A stretch of 24,000 nucleotides of DNA from Candidatus Pantoea formicae (GCF_011752625.1 NZ_VWXD01000009.1:73749-97748), one strand, 5' to 3'; shown: positions 3,655 through 14,505, numbered from the stretch's first letter. Made by a program: numbers and translations. The notes: generated by a model not told the origin, from the sequence alone.

Positions 3655-3751
3655 AAATAGGGTGTTAAAAAAAAATAATGATCCCGCTGGATTGAAAAGG
3701 AGCTGGCTTCTGGAACGTCCGCTTCACGCCCTGAGACATTCGACAAGCTTT

Positions 3752-4990
3752 CTACGGCATTAGTAAAGGCGATTTTCGCGCTTCCAGTGCCAGCAAATAT
3801 TTCGCTTCGTCATAACGGGTTCTGGTCTTCCAGCAGCGGTAAATAATCCTTATCCATTTGAATGCCAGAGCCCGGATCGCTGATTGATGAGATTTTCCTT
3901 TTTCTCGCATCCCCTGATAATACAGCTTGGCCCAGTATGATGAGTTAACCGTTTTGGCAGCCCATTCGACAAAGGTTTGCCTGACGAACTTTGCACACTG
4001 CCATCGCCAGTGAACCCAGGATTTCTGGCCAATTCGCTCAGTCACCGGAGCAATACCTGCGTAGTTTTGAATTTCCTCAGCGCTGCTGAAACGGTCGCGG
4101 TTATCACCCAGTGCGGCAAGCATACGTGGGCCCATACACGGCCCCATGCCCGGTAGTGATTTGAACAGCTCTGCATCCGGAAGCGTATCGAATAACGATT
4201 CGATTCGTTCGTCGTAGGTTCTGATAAATTCACCTACAAGTTTGATTTGTGATGCAAGAGCTGTTGCCATTAGCGCGTTCGCCTCGATGACACTTTTATC
4301 AGTGGTCAGGGGAATCGCGTTGGCAATGCTTGTAACCCGCTGTTCTGTATACGCAACAGCGGGACCACCTCTTGCGTTCATAAAATGACGGACGGTATTA
4401 CTCCGGGCACGTTTGAGCTGTTGCAGGCTTGGCCAGCGAATTATGAGCTCACAGAACAATGAACTGTCCCGATGCGAGAACCATTCCAGGGGTTGAGGAT
4501 AATACTGCTTAAGCGTGTTAATGAGCCGATTAACAAAGCGGCATTTGTCTTCTACCAGCAGCCTACGCTGCTCGACTAGTTGTAGAAGTAAACGGATATC
4601 AGCATTGTCGGGTTCGATGGCTTTTATCTTTTGGGGATAGCGTAGCATCAGATCTAACGCCAACTCGGCATCCTGAGGATCATCCTTCGCACCACTTGGC
4701 CAGAAGGTCTGCCGATAGCGGGCCAATGATAACGCGTGTACAGGAAAGACAGTAATAAAGGGGTACTTTTGGAGAGCATATACTACCGGGCCTTTCTTCA
4801 GTTCAAGGGCGATAGCGATCCTGCCTTTGACCTAATGGTGCAACTCATTGAGCCAGGTATCAAGCGCTTCCGGCGTATGGTTAATCACATGGAATGTGCG
4901 CTCACCGTTTTTAAACTGAACGCAGACATCGTGCTTTTTATCCGCCCAATCCAGACCAACATGAGCAGCAAACTGAGCTATAGCAGTCAT
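3752..4990 (-). pseudogene. IS110-family transposase interrupted by a single in-frame TAG (codon 53)
   Basis: My reverse-complement translation from the ATG at 4988-4990 (AGGAG 8 nt upstream) gives MTAIAQFAAHVGLDWADKKHDVCVQFKNGERTFHVINHTPEALDTWLNELHH*VKGRIAIALELKKGPVVYALQKYPFITVFPVHALSLARYRQ... It runs in frame into the 324-aa ORF of the track (3752-4726). The stop is the complement of 4832-4834. DEDD-type N-terminal motifs (GLDWA, ALELKKG, AKDDPQDAE) and the C-terminal IS116/IS110/IS902-type domain (GIAPVTERIGQKS...AIRALAFKWIRIIYRCW) are present. Confidence 0.85.
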
Positions 4991-5102
4991 CACCAACTCC
5001 TTTTAAACGGGGATTGGTATGCATTCCACGCCCTTCGAAAGAAATATAGTCAGCAGTTTATCTGCATGCCCTGAGTATTCGTTAGCGAACGTGGAGCACT
5101 TA

Positions 5103-5114
5103 CTGGCTCGAAAG
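5103..5114. repeat. Inverted-repeat arm (partner of 3643-3654)
   Basis: ctggctcgaaag is the exact reverse complement of 3643-3654. Confidence 0.5.
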
Positions 5115-5578
5115 CAAAGCGGCAATCATCAGATCACATGATTCTGGCACAATATTCGTAACCAGTAAGCGCATACCCTGAATCACTTAAAAGTGTAATC
5201 CTCAGGGTTCGAATGACTATATCTGGCACACAGCAGACATCCACAACAGCTAATGCCCGCTGTGAGCGAAAGCGGATCTTCGGCATCAATTTTGCCCGAC
5301 ATAAAATAATGCTAGTTAATCGTGTAAAAACGCAGCCTTTCGTCTCGACGGCCATACCCCAAGGTAATTATCGCTAAGATTTGAGTCGGAAATTAAGTGC
5401 GGTCCTCATCCTTACGCTTTCTGTTTCCACCATTTCTGCTGTCTCAATCCGTTCATCTATACTGACTATTACAGCGATCATTTGCTCAGGATGCCGCGCC
5501 GTCGTCAGCATTTTCATTTTTCAGAATGAGTCAGACGCGCAGCGGCTGTAGAAATTCTTTTTATCCGGAAGACACCCG

Positions 5579-6052
5579 ATGAAAATAACGGAATTTGTCT
5601 ATTCAGCCTTAATTGGCCTTGTCGCCAGTTGCCGTTCTATGACACCAATGGCGGCTCTCGCTGCAGCACGTATTGCCGGACGCGACACATCAGGCAGACT
5701 TATCCTGCTGGATCGTCCCCTGTTCAAATATGGTGCGTTAGTAATGGGTGCGGGTGAACTTTTTGGTGACAAGATGAAGTCCGCGCCAGACCGCACTGTG
5801 TTTTTGGGCTTGTCAGCACGCGTGGCCAGTGCAGGGATTGCAGGTGCCGCGCTGGCACCCGGTGGAGAAGAAAAAACCGGGGCAGCGATCGCTATTTCTA
5901 CCGCTGTGCCACTTGCCTATGCCACGCTTGCGGCACGCAAAAAGGCTATGGGTGAAATGAGTCAGACCAAGAGCGGGCTGATTGAAGATACGCTCATTGT
6001 CGCCATCGGCGCAGCGGTGGTCTTCTTTGCCACACGCCCAAAGCGTGTTTGA
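5579..6052 (+). CDS. Small integral membrane protein (resembles the family annotated DUF4126, from memory)
   Basis: The 157-aa ORF has several Gly/Ala-rich hydrophobic segments (IGLVASC, GALVMGAGELFGDK, GLSARVASAGIAGAAL, IVAIGAAVVFFA). The GDKxxSAPDR-type loop matches my recollection of DUF4126. No strong competing ORF. Confidence 0.55.
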   Translation: MKITEFVYSALIGLVASCRSMTPMAALAAARIAGRDTSGRLILLDRPLFKYGALVMGAGELFGDKMKSAPDRTVFLGLSARVASAGIAGAALAPGGEEKTGAAIAISTAVPLAYATLAARKKAMGEMSQTKSGLIEDTLIVAIGAAVVFFATRPKRV

Positions 6053-6413
6053 AAATAATCTTTATTCAAATGATGAGCCCGGCGAGCCATCATGAAGGGG
6101 TTAGTAACGTCTTATGGCACACAGTTGCCGGTCACGCAATGCGATGTTCCCCTCAGCATCGGTGGCGATGGTCAAGCAAAATGCAAACGGGTAATCAAGT
6201 GAATGCAAATACCCAGCCAAAGAGCCTTCCTTAACTGTTTCTGGCGCCTACATGCCGCTGACGCGGCATCCAGATGCATGCTGCGCACTGCTCGCCTGAC
6301 CCGGTATCAGATCCGATATCCAGCCAGGACTGGCTGTACTACTATGCTTTTTTAAGATTGTGGCCAGCATGCACTGCTGCCTGAGGATTTTAAATAAATA
6401 CCTCTGAGGGTGT

Positions 6414-6776
6414 ATGACCGACAGCGAAGAAGCAGAGTTTAAGGATGTTTTGCTCATTATGATTAAGCGGTCCGTGGACTGGTATCGTGAGCAGGACTTT
6501 AGCCACATGAACGATGACGTGCGGCCAGCGCTGGAAAGTATATTCAGCCCGGGAGAAGGGTATGACCCCAGTGCCAGCGCCCAGATTGGCATTAATATGA
6601 TGATGATTGGTCAGGTATGGCAAGATGAACGCTTCACGGCATTTGCCGACAGGGCTGCCCGGACGTCATGTAACAGGAGAACCATGGGCAAACTTCCCGA
6701 AAAAATTGCCCTTCGGCAGCTGCTGGATGAAGTCAGTGAAGTGCTCAGAGAGCCCCGGTTTAATACGACTGAATAA
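6414..6776 (+). CDS. Hypothetical protein (120 aa)
   Basis: ATG preceded by GAGGG at 5-nt spacing. The composition is protein-like (acidic, helical). The overlapping antisense ORFs are Ser/Cys/Pro-rich junk. No motif recognised. Confidence 0.5.
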   Translation: MTDSEEAEFKDVLLIMIKRSVDWYREQDFSHMNDDVRPALESIFSPGEGYDPSASAQIGINMMMIGQVWQDERFTAFADRAARTSCNRRTMGKLPEKIALRQLLDEVSEVLREPRFNTTE

Positions 6777-7004
6777 CCTGATTAAATCCGGCTCCATATG
6801 TTGCAGCCCCGGATGATGGGGCATGGCCAGAACTTCATCCCGGAGCTGTGGCAGTCTCATACTGTACGAAATTTGTACTCACTCGGCCCGCGGCGATGGT
6901 AACCTGATTTTCAGTCTTCTCAGGCAGCGGGCTGGCCGTCCTGATACACCTGTTTCACTGTCAGCATGCATTCGTTATCGAATACAACTTCAGCGGGGGG
7001 GCTG

Positions 7005-7238
7005 ATGAGAACTAGTGAAGATGAAACTGACCAGGATATTTACCACGATGCCTGCTTCGCGGCCGGCATGTGCTGCCTGAAGCTTGCCAGCGAGGGTGGA
7101 GAAATTAACCGTGAGCGGCTGGCCATCGAGCTGATGCGGCTGCTGGGCGCCCTGATCGAGAAAAGAGAAGAGTGCCCCTCCTCGCTGATATTTGCCATTG
7201 AGCAGTTGCGCGGCGAACTGGATGAAGAAGCAGGATAA
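7005..7238 (+). CDS. Small acidic helical protein (77 aa), possibly YmgB/AriR-like
   Basis: The ORF track starts at 6966, but the ATG at 7005 follows a G7 purine run (SD-like) while 6966 has no RBS. Size and the helical pattern (LKLASEGGEINRERLAIELMRLLGALIEKRE) recall YmgB/AriR-family proteins. This is recollection only. Confidence 0.4.
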   Translation: MRTSEDETDQDIYHDACFAAGMCCLKLASEGGEINRERLAIELMRLLGALIEKREECPSSLIFAIEQLRGELDEEAG

Positions 7239-7261
7239 GGCTCCCCGCTAAATCACGCCCG

Positions 7262-7942
7262 TCAGTCCTGTCCTTCCCGGACGGGCTCAATCAGCTCTCT
7301 GCCCTGATGGTGAATGTTTCCCACCTTTCTGCTCACCGGATGCCAGATAAACGCCTTTTCCGGCAGGGCGGCGTCATGGGCAATTTCTTCTGCCCGCGAG
7401 GGCGTCGTCTCCGGGCTAAGCCACTCACGGACGGCGTCAGGGGAAAGCACCAGCGGGCGCCTGTCGTGAATGTCGACCATGCCCCTGTTGCTGGCCGACG
7501 TCACAATCACAAACCCCTCTTTGCCGTGATCCTCTCCGTAAGGCTGTTTACCGATCGCGGCAAAAAACAGGGGCTGATTATCTTTATGATAAATGCAGAA
7601 CGGCTGCTTCTTATCATCTTCCTTCTTCCATTCGAACCAGGCGTCAGCGGGCACGATGGCGCGGCCGTGGTTCCACAGAGGTTTAAACATGCGGCCGCTG
7701 GCCGCTGTTTCCCCGCGTGCGTTAATCAGCGGCTGCTTATCCCACCATTCCGGTCCGTATCCCCAGAAAACCGGGTCGAGGCGCAGGACGTCTTCCTGCT
7801 CGTTGAGGAGCAGCACCTTCGTGCCCGGCGCAACGTTAAACCGGCCGATGGGCTCAGGGTCGAACGTGATTTCGTCCGGCTTCAGGCCGAGCGCATCAAA
7901 ATACTCATCACGGCTGCTGTACTGCGCAAATCGTCCGCACAT
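7262..7942 (-). CDS. yedK: SOS response-associated peptidase (SRAP/YedK family, abasic-site DNA-protein crosslinking)
   Basis: The sequence begins MCGRFAQ with the catalytic Cys2 directly after the initiator Met. The ATG at 7940-7942 has AGGAGG 5 nt upstream; the track's 7948 start is a GTG two codons earlier. Conserved blocks NVAPGT, DPVFWGY, LINARGET, WFEWKK and DIHDRRPLVL match E. coli YedK as I recall it. Confidence 0.9.
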   Translation of the reverse strand: MCGRFAQYSSRDEYFDALGLKPDEITFDPEPIGRFNVAPGTKVLLLNEQEDVLRLDPVFWGYGPEWWDKQPLINARGETAASGRMFKPLWNHGRAIVPADAWFEWKKEDDKKQPFCIYHKDNQPLFFAAIGKQPYGEDHGKEGFVIVTSASNRGMVDIHDRRPLVLSPDAVREWLSPETTPSRAEEIAHDAALPEKAFIWHPVSRKVGNIHHQGRELIEPVREGQD

Positions 7943-7996
7943 AGTCACCTCCTGCAGTAAGGAGAGCCGGGTATACTGACCTCAGGAGGATTTCAC

Positions 7997-8242
7997 ATGT
8001 CACAGTATTTAGCCGCACGCATCCCGGAAGAACGGGCGAAGGTCAACGTGGATCTGGCCGCCTCAGGCGTGGCGTACAGAGAGCGCCTTAATCTGCCCGT
8101 TATCCCGGCCGAAGCTGAAAGGCAGCAGCCACGGGAGCTGCGCGAATACTTCATGGAACGGCTCCAGTATTACCGCAATCTGGCCCTGCAGTACCCGCGG
8201 GGAACCGACCCGGTCTATCAGAAAGAACCAAAGGGAGAATGA
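7997..8242 (+). CDS. Hypothetical protein (81 aa), divergent from the SRAP gene
   Basis: ATG with AGGAGG 7 nt upstream. Charged helical composition. No motif recognised. Confidence 0.55.
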   Translation: MSQYLAARIPEERAKVNVDLAASGVAYRERLNLPVIPAEAERQQPRELREYFMERLQYYRNLALQYPRGTDPVYQKEPKGE

Positions 8243-8266
8243 AAGTAAACGTCCGTGCGGTATTTT

Positions 8267-8494
8267 TCAGAGACGCGAGCGCTTACTCTGCCAGGCGACA
8301 AGGAGCAGGAGCGCCACCGCGCCGGACAGTACGAGGTAGACCGCCCTGTGCGTGTCTGCGCGGCCAAGAAAGTAGAAAAGGGTACTCAGCCCCGTCACGG
8401 CGAACAGCATGGCGGCTAAACCGATATTCACATAGCTGCCGAGGACTTTAAGGAGCCATTCCTCAGATTTTTTTGCCGATGACTGCTTTAACAT
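8267..8494 (-). CDS. Small membrane protein, two predicted TM helices (75 aa)
   Basis: VLGSYVNIGLAAMLFAVTGLSTLFYFL and AVYLVLSGAVALLLLVAW are clear hydrophobic helices separated by a short polar loop. The gene is co-directional with the Rpn gene upstream. Confidence 0.55.
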   Translation of the reverse strand: MLKQSSAKKSEEWLLKVLGSYVNIGLAAMLFAVTGLSTLFYFLGRADTHRAVYLVLSGAVALLLLVAWQSKRSRL

Positions 8495-8879: not shown

Positions 8880-9779
8880 TCAGTGGCGAATTTTTGCGAG
8901 GTCGTCATCCGACAGCCCGGTTAGTTCTCTCACCGATTCCAGCGGAATGCCTTTCTGCAGCAGGTTGCGGGCGACCTCCATTTTGCCTTCCTGACGCCCT
9001 TCCTGACGTCCTTTCTCCAGTCCCTTCTGCTCCAGCTGCTGTGCAATCGTCATCAGTTCGTCCTCATGCTGCGGCACTCTCTGCGCCAGGTTGCGTACGA
9101 AGGCTTCGGCGTCGTCGGTTTCGCCCGCCTGTACGAGGTAGTTTATCAGCGAAACCAGCTGCTGTCCCGTGAGGTGACCGGCCATCAGGGTGGCGACCAG
9201 CCGGTCCAGCAGGTCAGCCATGTCGCGCCGGTGGATGTGCTTCTGCAGCAGGGTCAGCGCGGCCATGCTGCGGTGATTCATGATCTCATCGTCCGGGATC
9301 ACCGTGACGTCGACCAGCGGGAACGGCGCGCCGTAAAGGCGGCCGGCCAGCGCCGGGTCATCAAACTCCTGCAGCCAGTCGGTGGAGTACGGATACGGGC
9401 TGCGCTTCCCGGTGTAGAACAGCACCGGGATGACCAGCGGCAGCTTTTTATGCCCGGCGTCGAGGTGGCGCTGCATGGCGGCCACGGCGTAGCGCATCAG
9501 GCGAAACGCCATGTGCCGGTCGGGCGTTGACTGGTGCTCGATCAGCACGTGGATGTAGCCGTCGCCGGCGGCGGTCTTCAGGCTGTAGAGCACGTCGCTG
9601 TAGAAAGCGCGCAGGTTTTCCTCCACAAAGCTGCCGGACTCCAGCTTCAGGGTGCTCAGGTCACAGACGGCGCGCAGCTCTGCCGGCAGGTGCAGCTCGA
9701 TAAAGTCCCGGGCCGTATCGGGATGCGTCAGGAAAGCCTTGAAGGTCGCGTCGTGAGGCACCGGTGTAGGTTTTTTCAT
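8880..9779 (-). CDS. Rpn-family recombination-promoting nuclease / putative transposase (YhgA-like PD-(D/E)xK)
   Basis: The N-terminus PHDATFKAFLTHPDTARDFIELHLP, the core block SDVLYSLKT...GYIHVLIEHQS (D...ExQ/K nuclease core) and PLVIPVLFYTGKRSPYPYS are the hallmark blocks of E. coli RpnA-E/YhgA-like proteins. The C-terminal tail QQLEQKGLEKGRQEGRQEG...ARNLLQKGIPLE is also typical. Confidence 0.9.
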   Translation of the reverse strand: MKKPTPVPHDATFKAFLTHPDTARDFIELHLPAELRAVCDLSTLKLESGSFVEENLRAFYSDVLYSLKTAAGDGYIHVLIEHQSTPDRHMAFRLMRYAVAAMQRHLDAGHKKLPLVIPVLFYTGKRSPYPYSTDWLQEFDDPALAGRLYGAPFPLVDVTVIPDDEIMNHRSMAALTLLQKHIHRRDMADLLDRLVATLMAGHLTGQQLVSLINYLVQAGETDDAEAFVRNLAQRVPQHEDELMTIAQQLEQKGLEKGRQEGRQEGKMEVARNLLQKGIPLESVRELTGLSDDDLAKIRH

Positions 9780-9963
9780 GCATTTTCCATCTTTTGAAGT
9801 GCAGCGGACAGCTCGTTTATAGGCTGAGTAACGTCACAAAAATTCCGCATACTGACTGGGTCTAAGCTTCGCAGGACGTAATGGCGTAAAAAGACAGGTG
9901 CAGATCAGGACGTTTGCGGCACTCATTTAAATTTCATGCGACACAAGTTTGTCAGCCAAGAAT

Positions 9964-10836
9964 TCATTTTGTTATGTCCGGGAAGATTTCATCAATTTTG
10001 ACATATAAAGATCCTGTTTCTGCGGCGCGTCGTATTTTTTCCTCCATTAATATTCTGAAGCTCACGTTGTTTTTCAGCATCAGTGCCAGGTCATATCCGC
10101 TTACGCATACCACCCGCTTACCCCTGCCCCATGCATCCAGTCCTTCTTTTGTAAAACCGGACCAGCTGATAAAGGCGCCGCGGGCCCATGAAGCTTTTTG
10201 CTCCAGTTTCCCCTGAAGAACGTGAAGATCTGCATGACCTGTTTTCGCGTCCTGCCATTTGGCCTCTATAAGATAGGTTTCATTATTCAGCTGAAAGCTG
10301 CCGTCAATCTGTTCGCCCCTGAGCCTGAAGGCCCCCTTTGGGGCTAAATAAAATGCCTCAAACAGTTCATTGAGCCATTTTTCAAACCCGTAGCCCCTCT
10401 GCTGTGAAGGGAGTTTATGGAGCGCCTCAAGGCCGCCTAAAAAGTATTTGTTATCAATACCGGTAGGTACGACTAAGGCCGGCGTGAAGCCGGAGGCAGC
10501 CTGACTGTCCGCTCCCTGGATTTTTAAAATCAGGCGACCGTAGTTGCTTTCGTCCTGGGCGGTAATTGGATGGTCACTCAGCGTTTTCCGGTATTCCCAC
10601 AGGCGGGTCACGACTTTCAGAACGGTAATGCGTTCAGTTTTTTTAACGAAGCAGCGCAGACGCTTCATCTTTGAGCCGCCGTCGTCGCGGTAAAGTTCGT
10701 TATCAATATCTATCGAGAATTCGGATTCAAAAAATTCCCGCATGGTTTTATCAGTAAAGTCCAGAACGTAACCCGCATTGTTTTTATCTTCGAAAAGCTG
10801 CCCTACCGCCTTGATATCATTAGATGTTAATTTCAT
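9964..10836 (-). CDS. Two-domain protein: unassigned N-terminal domain plus C-terminal Mrr-like PD-(D/E)xK restriction-endonuclease fold (290 aa)
   Basis: The C-terminal half GYGFEKWLNELFEAFYLAPKGAFRLRGEQIDGSFQLNNETYLIEAKWQ contains the D...ExK arrangement (IDG ... EAK) with spacing typical of Mrr_cat-type nucleases. The N-terminal roughly 150 aa (DIKAVGQLFED..GYVLDFTDKTMREFFESEF...GGSKMKRLRCF) is not assignable by me. It is the last gene of the KAP operon, 52 nt after the KAP stop. Confidence 0.7.
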   Translation of the reverse strand: MKLTSNDIKAVGQLFEDKNNAGYVLDFTDKTMREFFESEFSIDIDNELYRDDGGSKMKRLRCFVKKTERITVLKVVTRLWEYRKTLSDHPITAQDESNYGRLILKIQGADSQAASGFTPALVVPTGIDNKYFLGGLEALHKLPSQQRGYGFEKWLNELFEAFYLAPKGAFRLRGEQIDGSFQLNNETYLIEAKWQDAKTGHADLHVLQGKLEQKASWARGAFISWSGFTKEGLDAWGRGKRVVCVSGYDLALMLKNNVSFRILMEEKIRRAAETGSLYVKIDEIFPDITK

Positions 10837-10888
10837 ACCTGATTACCCGAAAATGCGCATAAAAATTAGTTGTGAATTTGAGACATTC

Positions 10889-13126
10889 TTACCGATTGAA
10901 CGAGATCGCGTCTCTCACTTGGTTAACAAGCTCTGGAAAATTTCCGCTTCTCTCAATGTCATCCAGCCTTTGAGTCACCGTCTCTTCTCCTTCAAGAAAT
11001 TCTGCGATATCACTCAGACGCAGTGCACGGTAATAACCGGTGGCGCTGCTGAGCCCGCGATAACGGAGCTGAAGAAGCAATTTCAGAAAACTTTCGTCAT
11101 CACGGATCTTCGATGCAACCCAGGTGCTGACAAGAGCCGTTGTGCCTATATCTTTCCAGGCGAAGATAAATCCGGGTAGATCCTCGAAATGAATAAACCA
11201 GTCTGACAACTCGCGATCGTCAAGACGCTGGCAAAAAATGGTGCAGAGTTGTGTCAGTTCATTGTCAGCGAAAACCCTGTTCTCTTCGGGCTCAGGCCGG
11301 GTACCGGCCATGCCATTCTGCCAGACAAGATGGCGCAAATAGATGGCTGTCCAGTAAACGGCTTTATCGTTCCTGAGTCTTTCAGACAGATAATCAAGCG
11401 TGGAAGGACGCTCCTCGCTGAGCAGCCTTGTTAGCAGACGATCGACCAGAGTATCCAGCTCAATATCATACATGGCAAACCAGTTCCCGTGTCCCCGATA
11501 GCGGCTGACCAGATCATCGGCATACTCGAAGAAAAACCATAACAATCCCCGGCACTGTGCTGCTGTAATTACGCTGAGTCTTTGTGGAGTCAATTGATCA
11601 ATAACCTGCTCGAACTTTGTGCGTGAGGAGAAGCCGTTCAAGGTCACCAGATTAAGCAGCTTTTCAGCCAGCAGCAGGGGCTTCGGATCGCTCCCGGCCA
11701 GCCTGAAAAGTTCGTCAAAAAAGTCCGGAAGCAGGATGTTTTTGGGCGGGCTGAAGGCGAAGTAATAACGCCACCAGTCTCTGCTGCTTAGCCGTCTTCC
11801 AGATGAACGCTCCTGCTCCTCAACATGCACCGTTTTAGAGAAAAGCACCGGATTGTCGTTCCTGATACCCTCGATGCCGGGCAACCAGCGCCTCAGCGTC
11901 ACGACTGAGAGCGGTGAGACTGCTGGGAGCGACTCAAGAATACCGGTCAGTGCATTACTCATGGCGGCTTTTTCTCTATCGGATACCTGTCCCTCACCGG
12001 AATCGACAACTGCCTGCTCGGTCAGATAATGTTCTATCCAGTAGTACATTTCTGGAAGTGTAACTCGCAGCAGCTGCAGCAGGCAGAGATCCGGAAACCA
12101 GCAGAATTCCCGCAGGGGGGGATAGCGAAACGCAAGGGCACTGAGCGCCAGCCTCACCTCACGTGGCGTACTCAGAGTGGCTCCAAATGTATTCGCCACG
12201 TTTTTGAGATCGGTCAGGAGTGTTTTATCAGGCTCCCTGCCGCTCACGTTCATGTATATCTTTACAGCCTCATTAAAAAATTCACGTCGAAGATCAAACG
12301 ATTCGTGACGAGGCAGCGGAAATGGCAGCTGAACAATTTTTTGCAGGTAATGCTGACCGTCTGCAACGCCCAGCCCACGCTTCACGGCATGCCCGAGCAC
12401 CTCCGGGTCGTAGCACATCACGTAACGGAAGCGGGAAAAGTCTGCAACGGAGCGCACCAGCCGGAGAACCTCAACGGCCTGGGCGGGTTCGAGTCGGTCA
12501 AGGTCATCCAGAACAACGATAAAATTCAGGTCCAGTGAAGCGATTTTCTTTTCAATATCATCCCTCAGTGCATCAGCTGTCCGGCCACTGGCGGATAAAT
12601 CTGTTGCTGAGAGGGTTTTCATTGAGCTGGCCACTATCCCCGCTCCGGGAATGAAGTTTCCAGCCAGTTCGGCCAGAGGAGCCAGTCGTCCGCTGGCCTG
12701 CTGCGCGTAGCGCACCACATCAGTGGCCAGCGCAGAGGCTTTACTTCCGCGCAGACGGTGCCACAACCTGCACGGCCATGAAGAATTGCCCTGCTCAACC
12801 TTGTTCAGGATGTCCGCAACCGGTATAAGCAGGTTTTCAACCTTACATCCTCCGTCAGGGCTAAGCCAGGGTGAAACCTGCAGAACGTATGTTCCCTCAG
12901 GACGGTCCTGCTCCATACGATGCCGCAGCAGGTTCAGCAGGCTGGTTTTACCGGAACCCCACGGTCCCTCAATGCCGATCACCGAGCTGACATTGTCATC
13001 CAGCGCGATGATGCTGCGTGACAGGCTTTCTGCCAGTGCCACATAGCCATAGCGGTCTTCCTCTGGAGTGGTTACAGGGAGGTCATTGCCGGCCGCGGCC
13101 TGTATAGCAGAATTCTGTTCACGCAT
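10889..13126 (-). CDS. KAP-family P-loop NTPase (745 aa)
   Basis: The leader DRYGYVALAESLSRSI, Walker A VIGIEGPWGSGKTSLLNLL and the distant Walker B FIVVLDDLDRLEP give the characteristic KAP layout. About 500 aa of unassigned helical C-terminal sequence follows. The start codon lies 1 nt after the upstream stop (TGAtATG at 13124-13130). Confidence 0.9.
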   Translation of the reverse strand: MREQNSAIQAAAGNDLPVTTPEEDRYGYVALAESLSRSIIALDDNVSSVIGIEGPWGSGKTSLLNLLRHRMEQDRPEGTYVLQVSPWLSPDGGCKVENLLIPVADILNKVEQGNSSWPCRLWHRLRGSKASALATDVVRYAQQASGRLAPLAELAGNFIPGAGIVASSMKTLSATDLSASGRTADALRDDIEKKIASLDLNFIVVLDDLDRLEPAQAVEVLRLVRSVADFSRFRYVMCYDPEVLGHAVKRGLGVADGQHYLQKIVQLPFPLPRHESFDLRREFFNEAVKIYMNVSGREPDKTLLTDLKNVANTFGATLSTPREVRLALSALAFRYPPLREFCWFPDLCLLQLLRVTLPEMYYWIEHYLTEQAVVDSGEGQVSDREKAAMSNALTGILESLPAVSPLSVVTLRRWLPGIEGIRNDNPVLFSKTVHVEEQERSSGRRLSSRDWWRYYFAFSPPKNILLPDFFDELFRLAGSDPKPLLLAEKLLNLVTLNGFSSRTKFEQVIDQLTPQRLSVITAAQCRGLLWFFFEYADDLVSRYRGHGNWFAMYDIELDTLVDRLLTRLLSEERPSTLDYLSERLRNDKAVYWTAIYLRHLVWQNGMAGTRPEPEENRVFADNELTQLCTIFCQRLDDRELSDWFIHFEDLPGFIFAWKDIGTTALVSTWVASKIRDDESFLKLLLQLRYRGLSSATGYYRALRLSDIAEFLEGEETVTQRLDDIERSGNFPELVNQVRDAISFNR

Positions 13127-13127
13127 A

Positions 13128-14213
13128 TCAGAGATCCCCGTACAGGGCGCGCATGTCGGCCAGCACCGGCGCCACGTCCGGCTCGGCTACCATGGACAGA
13201 AACTCCGCCTCCAGTGCCAGATACTCTTCCAGCTTCACGAAGAAGTGCACCCCGTCCAGGGAAATGATGACGTCTTCAGATTCGTTGTACGGGAAATAGA
13301 CGCCGGCCAGACTGCCCCGGTCGCTCCAGGCCTTCGTGACGTTCAGCCACGCGCGGGCCTGAAACAGGCGTGTCAGTTCACTGAACATTGACCAGCCGAA
13401 CGCCAGCGCCACCCGGTCAGCCGTCAGCGTCAGGCTCAGCTGCGGCGCCTTATGGTGTAGGCCGTGCGCCTGAGGCATACGGTTGCCGCGGATCCATACC
13501 TGCAGGCAGACATCGTTAATTTTTACGACGCGGTTCAGATCCTCCGTCACCAGGCCTGTTGCGATCGCCCAGTCTTTCTGCGCCGCCGGCTGATACTGCT
13601 GCGCGCGGACGAGCAGCGGGAAAATGAGCTTCAGGCGCTCAGTGGTGCAGATCCGGGCGATCGCCTCGTCGGGAAAGGCCTCCAGGTTCAGGGCGCCTGA
13701 CGAGAGCGGGCGCAGCAGGAACTCTGCCCAGGTGGTGTCCACGTTGCGGCGCATGCCGGCCATGAACCGGTCCGCCTCTTCGCGGTAGTTTTCACCGCTC
13801 AGGTCAAAGGCACGGTTGATGTAGTAGTTGTCCACCGGAATGCCGTTCTCCTCCGCGTAAACCAGCGCGTTAAAGGTGATGTCCAGAAGCGCCTCTATCG
13901 CCGGCCAGCTCATGAACGTGCTGCCGGTCTGTGTGGCCTGATGCGCGCGGGTAAAGAGCCAGCGCAGCTCGGCCGGCTTCAACGCCTGGCGACCAAAGGT
14001 TTCCCCGCGCACAATCTTCCGGTAAAGCGACAGGTTGGTTGCACCAGGATCGGCATTCAGGCTCAGCCACTCGTCGTTCGGCGCGGATGCCATCAGTTTT
14101 TCTTCAATAAAGCGCCCCGCCAGGGCGTTGACCGAGGTGTCTTCGGCGGACGCCCGCGACTTCAAGCTGTCGATCAGCTTTCTGGGGAAACGTAGGTTAA
14201 GCTGGCTGAGCAT
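13128..14213 (-). CDS. Ribbon-helix-helix (CopG/Arc-like) N-terminal domain fused to a roughly 310-aa domain of unknown function (361 aa)
   Basis: The N-terminus LNLRFPRKLIDSLKSRASAEDTSVNALAGRFIEEKL fits the beta-strand/helix/helix pattern of RHH DNA-binding domains. AGGAG lies 7 nt before the ATG. It is the first gene of the operon, directly behind a palindromic operator-like array. The rest of the protein has no motif I recognise. Confidence 0.7.
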   Translation of the reverse strand: MLSQLNLRFPRKLIDSLKSRASAEDTSVNALAGRFIEEKLMASAPNDEWLSLNADPGATNLSLYRKIVRGETFGRQALKPAELRWLFTRAHQATQTGSTFMSWPAIEALLDITFNALVYAEENGIPVDNYYINRAFDLSGENYREEADRFMAGMRRNVDTTWAEFLLRPLSSGALNLEAFPDEAIARICTTERLKLIFPLLVRAQQYQPAAQKDWAIATGLVTEDLNRVVKINDVCLQVWIRGNRMPQAHGLHHKAPQLSLTLTADRVALAFGWSMFSELTRLFQARAWLNVTKAWSDRGSLAGVYFPYNESEDVIISLDGVHFFVKLEEYLALEAEFLSMVAEPDVAPVLADMRALYGDL

Positions 14214-14232
14214 GATAGTCTTCCTTTATATG

Positions 14233-14291
14233 ACAAGCATTAAAAATGCTATCATAGCATTGTATTTGCTAAATAATATATTTAATGCTTG
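14233..14291 (-). promoter_or_regulatory. Operator-like array of AGCATT/AATGCT half-sites overlapping a putative extended -10 promoter for the RHH/KAP/nuclease operon
   Basis: caAGCATTaaaAATGCTatcatAGCATTgtaTTTGCTaaataatatatttAATGCTTg contains a perfect 6-3-6 palindrome at 14235-14249 and a second AGCA-N7-TGCT site at 14255-14269. A half-site at 14284-14289 lies 40 bp from the first centre. The outer 8-mers caagcatt and aatgcttg are reverse complements. On the minus strand, TGcTATGAT (extended -10; TATGAT is the complement of 14250-14255) sits between sites 1 and 2, about 35 nt upstream of the ATG. Confidence 0.45.
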
Positions 14292-14379
14292 ATTTTTTCT
14301 TATTGTGCATCACCTGGGTGCTGTTGATTTATTACGGTGAAGGTCTTCTCATCACATATCGCGTTCGCCTTTTTGGACT

Positions 14380-14407
14380 GGATCCGGAAAAAGGCAGAAG
14401 CGGATCC
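14380..14407. repeat. Hairpin repeat copy A (7-bp stem GGATCCG/CGGATCC, 14-nt purine loop)
   Basis: ggatccg-gaaaaaggcagaag-cggatcc. It matches copy B at 24 of 27 aligned positions (one gap). It lies in the divergent intergenic region between the RHH/KAP operon and the PIN-like gene. Confidence 0.6.
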
Positions 14408-14505
14408 GACAACAGCCACCTGACGTCATGAAGGTGCATTACCGCGCGCAGGAGGTGGGTTATATTTATTGCTTACAAACAACATCAATACAAAAGGCCC
14501 ACCGC

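Follow-up and report, generated by a model that had tools for sequence, protein, structure and literature searches.

Do three tightly spaced genes on one strand of a mobile element constitute a defence system of a new kind, or a known system with an addition? The question is raised by a locus of Candidatus Pantoea formicae contained in a 24,000-nucleotide (nt) stretch, NZ_VWXD01000009.1:73749-97748 (hereafter, the window; coordinates count from its first letter). A first-pass annotation had described the locus as an uncharacterised, unnamed defence-type module in which a ribbon-helix-helix (RHH) protein (gene 1), a KAP-family NTPase (gene 2) and an Mrr-like nuclease (gene 3) act as autoregulator, sensor and effector. 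The three co-directional minus-strand open reading frames, the gaps between them (a single nucleotide, position 13127, between the gene 1 stop and the gene 2 ATG, and 52 nt between the gene 2 stop and the gene 3 ATG) and their motifs are as described there (Table 1), and the recognition of a defence-type operon on a mobile element was correct. The first two genes, however, have names: they are homologues of pifC and pifA of the Pif system of Escherichia coli plasmid F, and only gene 3 lies outside the canonical system. The explanation that we favour, with measured confidence, is a diverged pif operon, controlled by PifC, at the 3' end of which an independent, self-contained defence gene has been stacked and is co-transcribed.

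Genes 1 and 2 and the Pif system

Gene 2 matches the PADLOC PifA model PDLC02361 (E = 5.2e-268; residues 11-744 against model positions 4-718 of 720) and Pfam KAP_NTPase (PF07693; 8.9e-39), with Walker A and B in place as first annotated. Plasmid genes that carry the annotation 'phage T7 exclusion protein' align with 96% of its length at 38.6% identity. The two Walker motifs are invariant across the aligned PifA homologues. The first-pass annotation regarded the protein as a soluble variant of the KAP family; there is indeed no segment of transmembrane (TM) grade (maximum KD19 hydropathy 1.42), but this is no peculiarity of the locus. Because F-type PifA likewise lacks such a segment (1.27), the absence of TM helices characterises the PifA family as a whole.

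Gene 1 shows full-length tblastn matches, at 36-38% identity, to genes annotated 'transcriptional repressor PifC', with 1283 plasmid records at a coverage of at least 80%; it is 37% identical to F-type PifC and 88% identical to that of Pantoea SS70, and many of its homologues carry the name PifC. Of the first description, the length of 361 amino acids (aa) stands, whereas the RHH domain, Arc-like, is detected below threshold only (Pfam E = 0.009, 16.3 bits against a cut-off of 20.4). No model in PADLOC, NCBIfam or Pfam matches PifC above threshold, and the PADLOC check proposed at the outset accordingly names gene 2 as PifA and returns nothing for gene 1 or gene 3. In the homology of both proteins and in the tight coupling of pifC to pifA, genes 1 and 2 agree with the Pif system.

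Upstream of pifC lies a perfect palindrome, ATGCTA-N3-TAGCAT, that is unique in the window (chance expectation 0.01) and is additionally surrounded by AGCAT/ATGCT half-sites (14236-14291). The same palindrome recurs at -46 in plasmid F and at -47 in a number of further PifC loci (the -46/-47 set comprises F, F-type L001, Pantoea SS70, L181 and L006), with one mismatch in L017 and L023 and a symmetric double substitution in L186. It is probably the PifC operator, of the pifO type, as predicted from its position and conservation, and PifC would repress the whole unit from it. The persistence of this palindrome from F to Pantoea-type plasmids should be useful to specialists. A second PifC subgroup (L002, L009, L014, L015, L018, L022) lacks ATGCTA-N3-TAGCAT and has other palindromes, for example, ACATGATGTCAT and CTGTATTCAGAGAATACAG, which suggests that operator specificity may have diverged between the subgroups.

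PifC of F is both the regulator of the pif operon and a fertility-inhibition factor directed against the coupling proteins of rival plasmids (PMC5696584). In the structure model of the homologue described here (predicted local distance difference test, pLDDT, 83.5), the C-terminus (residues 226-358, nt 13128-13538) forms two beta-beta-beta-beta-alpha repeats. Their comparison with PDB yields Whirly and PUR-alpha folds, which bind single-stranded DNA, below threshold (E = 0.02-0.05, probability 0.97-0.99); this likeness, possibly relevant to the action of PifC on conjugative DNA transfer, backs no conclusion.

In F, PifA aborts infection in response to gp1.2 and gp10 of phage T7 (PMC8594841); its phage range is narrow and its mechanism undefined (PMC8594841, PMC13552941). 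The homologue in the window would likewise trigger abortive infection. Its two halves differ in conservation: the C-terminal half (residues ~371-745) is hypervariable, its identity to relatives being 29-79% and that of the N-terminal half 47-96% (N-terminal/C-terminal identity 47/29% for F, 77/46% for L186 and 96/79% for L181). The fast-evolving half may sense phage proteins and set the specificity of the trigger, which probably differs from that of F because the C-terminal halves are only 29% identical.

The pifA gene is also a mosaic, in that window positions 10889-12016 and 12017-13126 differ in relatedness. In Pantoea SS70 (L004), pifC has 87% nt identity to the window and DNA similarity stops at the pifC/pifA junction; in Erwinia billingiae (L186), pifC and the N-terminal half of pifA alone are in common with the window, and neither its C-terminal half nor gene 3 is present. 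PifA alleles, above all their C-terminal halves, appear to have been swapped behind a conserved pifC. The concentration of variability in the C-terminal half, together with allele swapping, points to the seat of trigger specificity.

The nuclease gene behind pifA

The PD-(D/E)xK core that had been noticed in gene 3 from its IDG...EAK signature holds: Pfam Mrr_cat matches above its cut-off (E = 2e-07, 31.5 bits against 21), as it does in all 31 aligned members of the gene 3 family, and the motifs GEQIDGSF and YLxEAKW, including D178, E191 and K193, are invariant across homologues. The AlphaFold model (pLDDT 81) consists of a helical N-domain (helix H5-15, short strands, then helices up to residue 107), a disordered linker and an alpha/beta C-domain. 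Foldseek on the models, a check proposed in the first-pass annotation, was informative in part: among PDB structures, the C-domain is closest to the nuclease cores of MspJI, Can2, Card1 and AF1548, the N-domain has no PDB match, and the PifC C-terminus has the sub-threshold matches given above. A PDB sequence search with gene 3 was empty, Pfam detected nothing in residues 1-145 of any of the 31 family members, and no PADLOC or NCBIfam model matches the N-domain.

When the N-domain alone was searched against 1.84 billion representative proteins, 759 clusters of widely varying lengths were recovered. Among 62 longer relatives, it is fused to Mrr_cat (14 cases), Abi_C, the AbiJ-type HEPN domain (12), and TIR (3), and, in one case each, to SIR2, SAVED, CHAT, a DpnII-type restriction endonuclease (REase), Ymh, a cyclase and a nucleoside deoxyribosyltransferase. 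This corresponds to AbiJ-NTD2, a domain of ~100 aa described as largely helical, with a strand adjoining the first helix, and as a fusion partner of AbiJ, Mrr REases and TIR (Anantharaman et al. 2013, PMC3710099). Pfam DUF3644 has erroneously absorbed it (PMC3710099), and a protein identical to gene 3 in Pantoea sp. Acro-805 is named 'DUF3644 domain-containing'. Gene 3 fits the AbiJ-NTD2-Mrr class, which is itself computationally defined, the N-domain having been compared with the published description only. The N-domains of AbiJ proteins have been proposed to sense phage components and to gate a suicidal effector (PMC3710099). By analogy, the N-domain marks gene 3 as a putative self-contained sensor-plus-effector protein: it would restrain the nuclease until an infection cue arrives, upon which the nuclease would cut DNA. 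Such a protein could act independently of PifA, either as a second layer of defence or against rival elements.

Alternatively, gene 3 might be no more than a modification-dependent (type IV) restriction enzyme of the Mrr-like kind, standing beside pifA by chance. The Mrr_cat match, the type IV enzyme MspJI as best structural match and the annotation 'restriction endonuclease' in many records all agree with such a role, which we nonetheless consider very improbable. The match to MspJI is limited to the nuclease core, and its TM-score is low (0.28); the N-domain is neither Mrr_N nor a known modification reader, has no Pfam or PDB match, and is common to RNase, NADase and protease effectors, which argues against DNA reading. 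Because gene 3 lacks a modification-reading N-domain, its predicted architecture is not that of a classical type IV Mrr enzyme.

How did a protein of this kind come to follow pifA? In a Pantoea metagenome-assembled genome (L181), blastn similarity to the window (89% nt identity; PifA 87%, gene 3 96%) covers exactly the block that stretches from the operator, across pifC and pifA, to a point 3 nt beyond the gene 3 stop; on either side the sequences are unrelated. A second group of loci (L182-184, L195-198; PifA 73%, gene 3 87%) has only pifA and gene 3 in common with the window (in L182, ~9961-13037), with the same spacer, the same 3' end nucleotide, no pifC and a different neighbourhood. The same arrangement is present in L185, where pifA is intact and gene 3 is truncated to 148 aa. 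In two comparisons, synonymous divergence (dS) was 0.29 for pifA and 0.24 for gene 3, and 0.98 and 0.87, respectively; both genes are under purifying selection, with ratios of nonsynonymous to synonymous divergence (dN/dS) of 0.18-0.24 for pifA and 0.08-0.10 for gene 3. The G+C content at third codon positions (GC3) is 0.56-0.58 in pifA and 0.52 in gene 3, against 0.80 in pifC and 0.81 in the neighbouring rpn gene, so that pifA and gene 3 have the appearance of a cassette of lower GC set between backbone genes of higher GC.

Thus, pifA and gene 3 form a stably co-inherited block in a narrow clade and, as far as the sampled sequences indicate, the combination is confined to a few Pantoea/Erwinia-type elements. 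Gene 3 alone is homologous to copies linked to a resolvase gene elsewhere (see below), from 19 nt upstream of its ATG through its stop. Taken together with the sharp boundaries of the block, the conserved spacer, the equal dS and the shared GC3, this homology indicates that gene 3 was captured once behind pifA and that both genes have been inherited and mobilised together ever since. On its arrival directly behind pifA, gene 3 would have brought along ~19-25 nt of its own leader. The 52-nt spacer contains no terminator-like or promoter-like site, and pifA and gene 3 are therefore likely to be co-transcribed, in which case gene 3 would be reached by read-through from the pif promoter.

To place this arrangement in a wider context, we surveyed 80 PifA-family loci from genomes and 88 gene-3-family loci from metagenomes and viral contigs. 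PifC precedes PifA in about 12 of the 80 PifA loci, all from Enterobacterales. A relative of gene 3 is tightly linked to PifA in a single locus (Reyranella L043, with the nuclease first) and lies nearby on the opposite strand in one more. In the 88 gene-3-family loci, a KAP neighbour was found once (L129, a metagenomic locus, with a 4-nt overlap), and PifC and Rpn never. In F-type, Klebsiella and Pantoea SS70 plasmids, other, unrelated genes come after pifC-pifA. Conservation of the triad, a check proposed in the first-pass annotation, is therefore real as a co-inherited block in a narrow clade and does not extend to PifA or gene 3 loci at large; the proposed scheme of sensor NTPase, nuclease effector and autoregulator finds no support as a general architecture, since F and most PifA loci have no nuclease and gene 3 is almost always found without PifA. 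The following generalisations were considered and rejected: the triad as the usual form of PifA loci (tight linkage in 1 of 80); gene 3 as a regular companion of PifA/KAP, PifC or Rpn (1, 0 and 0 of 88); the adjacency of gene 3 and rpn seen in Serratia as a general feature (0 of 88); and conservation of the Reyranella nuclease-PifA pair in rhizobial plasmids, where close relatives of the nuclease have no KAP neighbour.

Gene 3 is, in general, not part of the canonical Pif system. Its commonest enterobacterial version, 74% identical and indexed in 510 blocks of the collection, was translationally coupled to a 216-aa small serine resolvase (4-nt overlap), without PifA, in all 8 distinct contexts shown by the 24 contigs that were read. 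Small serine recombinases have been reported to mark defence genes (PMC13552941), and the resolvase-linked copies of gene 3 fit this report. Other copies stand alone or lie beside Hachiman (14 of 88), vapBC, Rpn or an ATPase-helicase pair. AbiJ-NTD2-Mrr is, then, a very common plasmid protein, usually coupled to a small serine resolvase, that in one lineage has become a stable third pif cistron.

In the alternative that bears most directly on these data, the Mrr-type nuclease is the effector of PifA, activated via the AbiJ-NTD2 domain or activating through it, and PifC autoregulates the system. We judge it unlikely, and several observations nevertheless speak for it and weigh against the reading of gene 3 as an independent addition. 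The linkage of pifA and gene 3, alike in dS and composition, has persisted over dS of ~0.9, spacer included, in three settings with unrelated flanks, one of them without pifC; this exceeds a loose defence-island neighbourhood and could reflect functional dependence. Gene 3 also tracks one allele group of the PifA C-terminus (L186 lacks both), and two more tight nuclease-KAP pairs, L043 and L129, are independent. Slightly less likely still is the broader possibility that PifA-type KAP NTPases can recruit AbiJ-NTD2-Mrr nucleases as partners, the two forming a two-protein unit here, in Reyranella and in the metagenomic KAP pair. Three further points count against our interpretation: the promoter scan gave no convincing sigma-70 site upstream of pifC or gene 3, the anti-phage, or primary, role of F PifA has itself been questioned (PMC8594841, PMC13552941), and a literature search found no experiments on any gene-3-family protein.

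On the other side, PifA of F works without such a nuclease, tight pairing is rare among PifA loci (1 of 78) and gene 3 loci (1 of 88) alike, the close relatives of the Reyranella nuclease have no KAP neighbour, L185 combines a truncated gene 3 with an intact pifA, and the architecture of gene 3 is that of a self-contained sensor-effector. We therefore retain the stacking of an independent gene on a pif operon. The alternative would be consequential: a two-protein unit would provide a first experimentally tractable output for PifA killing, and if the nuclease depends on PifA, the locus becomes a handle on signalling by PifA-type KAP NTPases.

The surveys yielded several observations on relatives of gene 3. 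In the resolvase-linked copies (L187-L194, L003, L093), the right-hand neighbours stay the same (YjaZ, DUF2913) and the left-hand ones differ (EcoRII restriction-modification (RM) genes, ParAB, insertion sequences (IS)). In the 14 loci with Hachiman (L103-L105, L109-L111, L133 and others), the AbiJ-NTD2-Mrr gene lies 14-18 nt upstream of the pair, which consists of HamA (Pfam 1.1e-10) followed by a helicase of 650-1186 aa; this suggests that AbiJ-NTD2-Mrr is a recurrent accessory at the 5' end of Hachiman operons. In Rhizobium tropici plasmid pRtrCIAT899a (L199, 4025-4906), a relative 76% identical to the Reyranella copy is placed between an 'ABC-three component system' and an AAA ATPase and helicase pair, again at the edge of defence modules.

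A separate observation concerns relatives of PifA. In six loci (L036, L041, L051, L053, L054, L058) from distant hosts (Vicinamibacterales, Pigmentiphaga, Pseudofulvimonas, Xanthomonas melonis, Stagnimonas and others), a PifA-family KAP gene (~5974-8270) overlaps by 4 nt the end of a gene for a 1635-1820-aa N6-methylase protein of the Eco57I/MmeI type. A ~320-aa protein is encoded before the methylase in four of the six, and a 633-aa Schlafen AlbA_2 + HATPase_c_4 protein after the NTPase in three. These loci look like a conserved multi-gene, RM- or BREX-like unit with an embedded PifA relative.

Surroundings of the block

The best DNA matches of the window are Erwinia and Pantoea plasmids, and identical or nearly identical proteins occur in Pantoea records. 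The neighbours listed in the first-pass annotation, namely, an Rpn nuclease, a PIN-like protein, a recombinase (a tyrosine recombinase further along the window) and an IS, are all present (Table 1). The PIN_12 gene and the 200-aa RHH gene lie outside the conserved pif block, because L006 and L181 carry other genes at this place. The 214-nt region between pifC and the PIN_12 gene also holds GGATCCG inverted repeats (14380-14408). The IS110 element, the theta homologue and Rpn/YhgA, with SRAP and UmuDC in related plasmids, make up a typical plasmid accessory or leading-region neighbourhood.

Table 1. Features of the pif locus and its surroundings (window coordinates)
Feature	Position (nt)	Strand	Remarks
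Co-inherited block: operator, pifC, pifA, gene 3	9961-14266	-	Defined by comparison with L181
Palindrome ATGCTAtcaTAGCAT (operon strand ATGCTAtgaTAGCAT), ATGCTA-N3-TAGCAT	14246-14260	.	Perfect; probable PifC operator (predicted); 47 nt upstream of the pifC ATG
pifC homologue (gene 1), 361 aa	13128-14213	-	N-terminal RHH-like segment, helical middle, C-terminal double beta-beta-beta-beta-alpha repeat
pifA homologue (gene 2), 745 aa	10889-13126	-	KAP-family P-loop NTPase; NTPase domain residues 32-333 (nt 12128-13033)
Walker A GPWGSGKT	12944-12967	-	PifA residues 54-61
Walker B VVLDDLDR	12494-12517	-	PifA residues 204-211
pifA-gene 3 spacer, 52 nt	10837-10888	-	3' part (...TTTTCGGGTAATCAGGT-ATG) kept in every pifA-linked copy
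Gene 3, 290 aa	9964-10836	-	AbiJ-NTD2-type N-domain and Mrr-type PD-(D/E)xK nuclease
Gene 3 N-domain, AbiJ-NTD2-type	10513-10836	-	Residues 1-108
Gene 3 disordered linker		-	Residues 109-125
Gene 3 Mrr-type nuclease domain	9964-10452	-	Residues 129-290
Gene 3 catalytic D178/E191/K193 (predicted)	10258-10308	-	IDG residues 177-179, EAK residues 191-193
IS110-family element	about 3714-5240		98% identical to a Rahnella-plasmid copy
DNA polymerase III theta homologue	7997-8242		Pfam 6.5e-26
Rpn/YhgA nuclease	8880-9779		
PIN_12 protein, 391 aa	14428-15603	+	Divergent from pifC
RHH protein, 200 aa	15708-16310	-	FitA-like RHH N-terminus; beyond the PIN_12 gene

This setting is one of the points in favour of yet another explanation, under which the locus would be a weapon of plasmid against plasmid: PifC would block the coupling proteins of rivals, the nuclease would strike incoming or rival DNA, and phage exclusion would be a side effect. 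Besides the accessory-region location, with Rpn, polymerase III theta and, in relatives, SRAP- and UmuDC-type neighbours, it draws on the capacity of F and R64 PifC to inhibit IncP and IncW conjugation by way of the type IV coupling protein (PMC5696584), on the very narrow phage range and the questioned primary role of F PifA and, by analogy only, on the anti-plasmid activity of unrelated HEPN-type DUF3644 proteins. We regard it as distinctly improbable. Such roles of the PifC considered here, 37% identical to that of F, and of gene 3 would be assigned by analogy, and fusions of AbiJ N-domains to HEPN, TIR, SIR2, CHAT and SAVED are typical of anti-phage abortive infection. A pif operon with an added defence gene remains our preferred explanation.

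Comparison with known systems

The general logic of a sensor NTPase with a nuclease effector recalls Hachiman HamAB and Lamassu-Mrr, and no PADLOC model of either matches any of the three proteins. Qat (QatABCD) was rejected as an assignment: the match of gene 2 to QatA is partial (PADLOC 1.2e-15; NCBIfam 43 bits against a cut-off of 600), and no QatB, QatC or QatD is present in the window. QatA and EF_KAP and its relatives (PMC13552941) resemble PifA in combining a KAP NTPase with a large uncharacterised C-terminal region needed for defence; the group also has ties to small serine recombinases and defence islands, but EF_KAP, unlike PifA, possesses TM helices and is not abortive (PMC13552941). 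Of the traits of the KAP family in general, PifA has the Walker A and B motifs and lacks the TM helices that typically occur in the NTPase domain.

For gene 3, the closest counterparts are the AbiJ-NTD2-Mrr REase fusions (PMC3710099), which have the same mostly helical N-domain of ~100 aa and an Mrr-type REase. This N-domain is found elsewhere on AbiJ HEPN (Abi_C), Ymh and TIR proteins, and the mislabelling as DUF3644 is shared as well. The class was defined computationally as stand-alone proteins, whereas in the window its member is the third cistron of a pif operon.

Genes 1 and 2 compare most directly with Pif of plasmid F (NC_002483). The order pifC-pifA and the 1-nt junction (44672/44670) are the same, both proteins are homologous over their full length, the same palindrome, the probable operator, lies at about the same distance from pifC, PifA lacks TM helices in both, and the common setting is the accessory regions of F-like plasmids. 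A text search for pifA and pifB returned unrelated Wolbachia proteins only, and no same-strand third gene ('pifB') follows pifA in F. The locus of Candidatus Pantoea formicae differs in a protein identity of only 37-38%, falling to 29% in the C-terminal half of PifA, and in what comes after pifA: a co-directional nuclease gene at 52 nt in place of the convergent gene that F has at 50 nt. What is known, then, is the two-gene Pif system, and what is new is a variant with a nuclease gene captured behind pifA. The main value of the comparison is corrective, as the supposedly unnamed triad is the classical Pif system with one extra gene.

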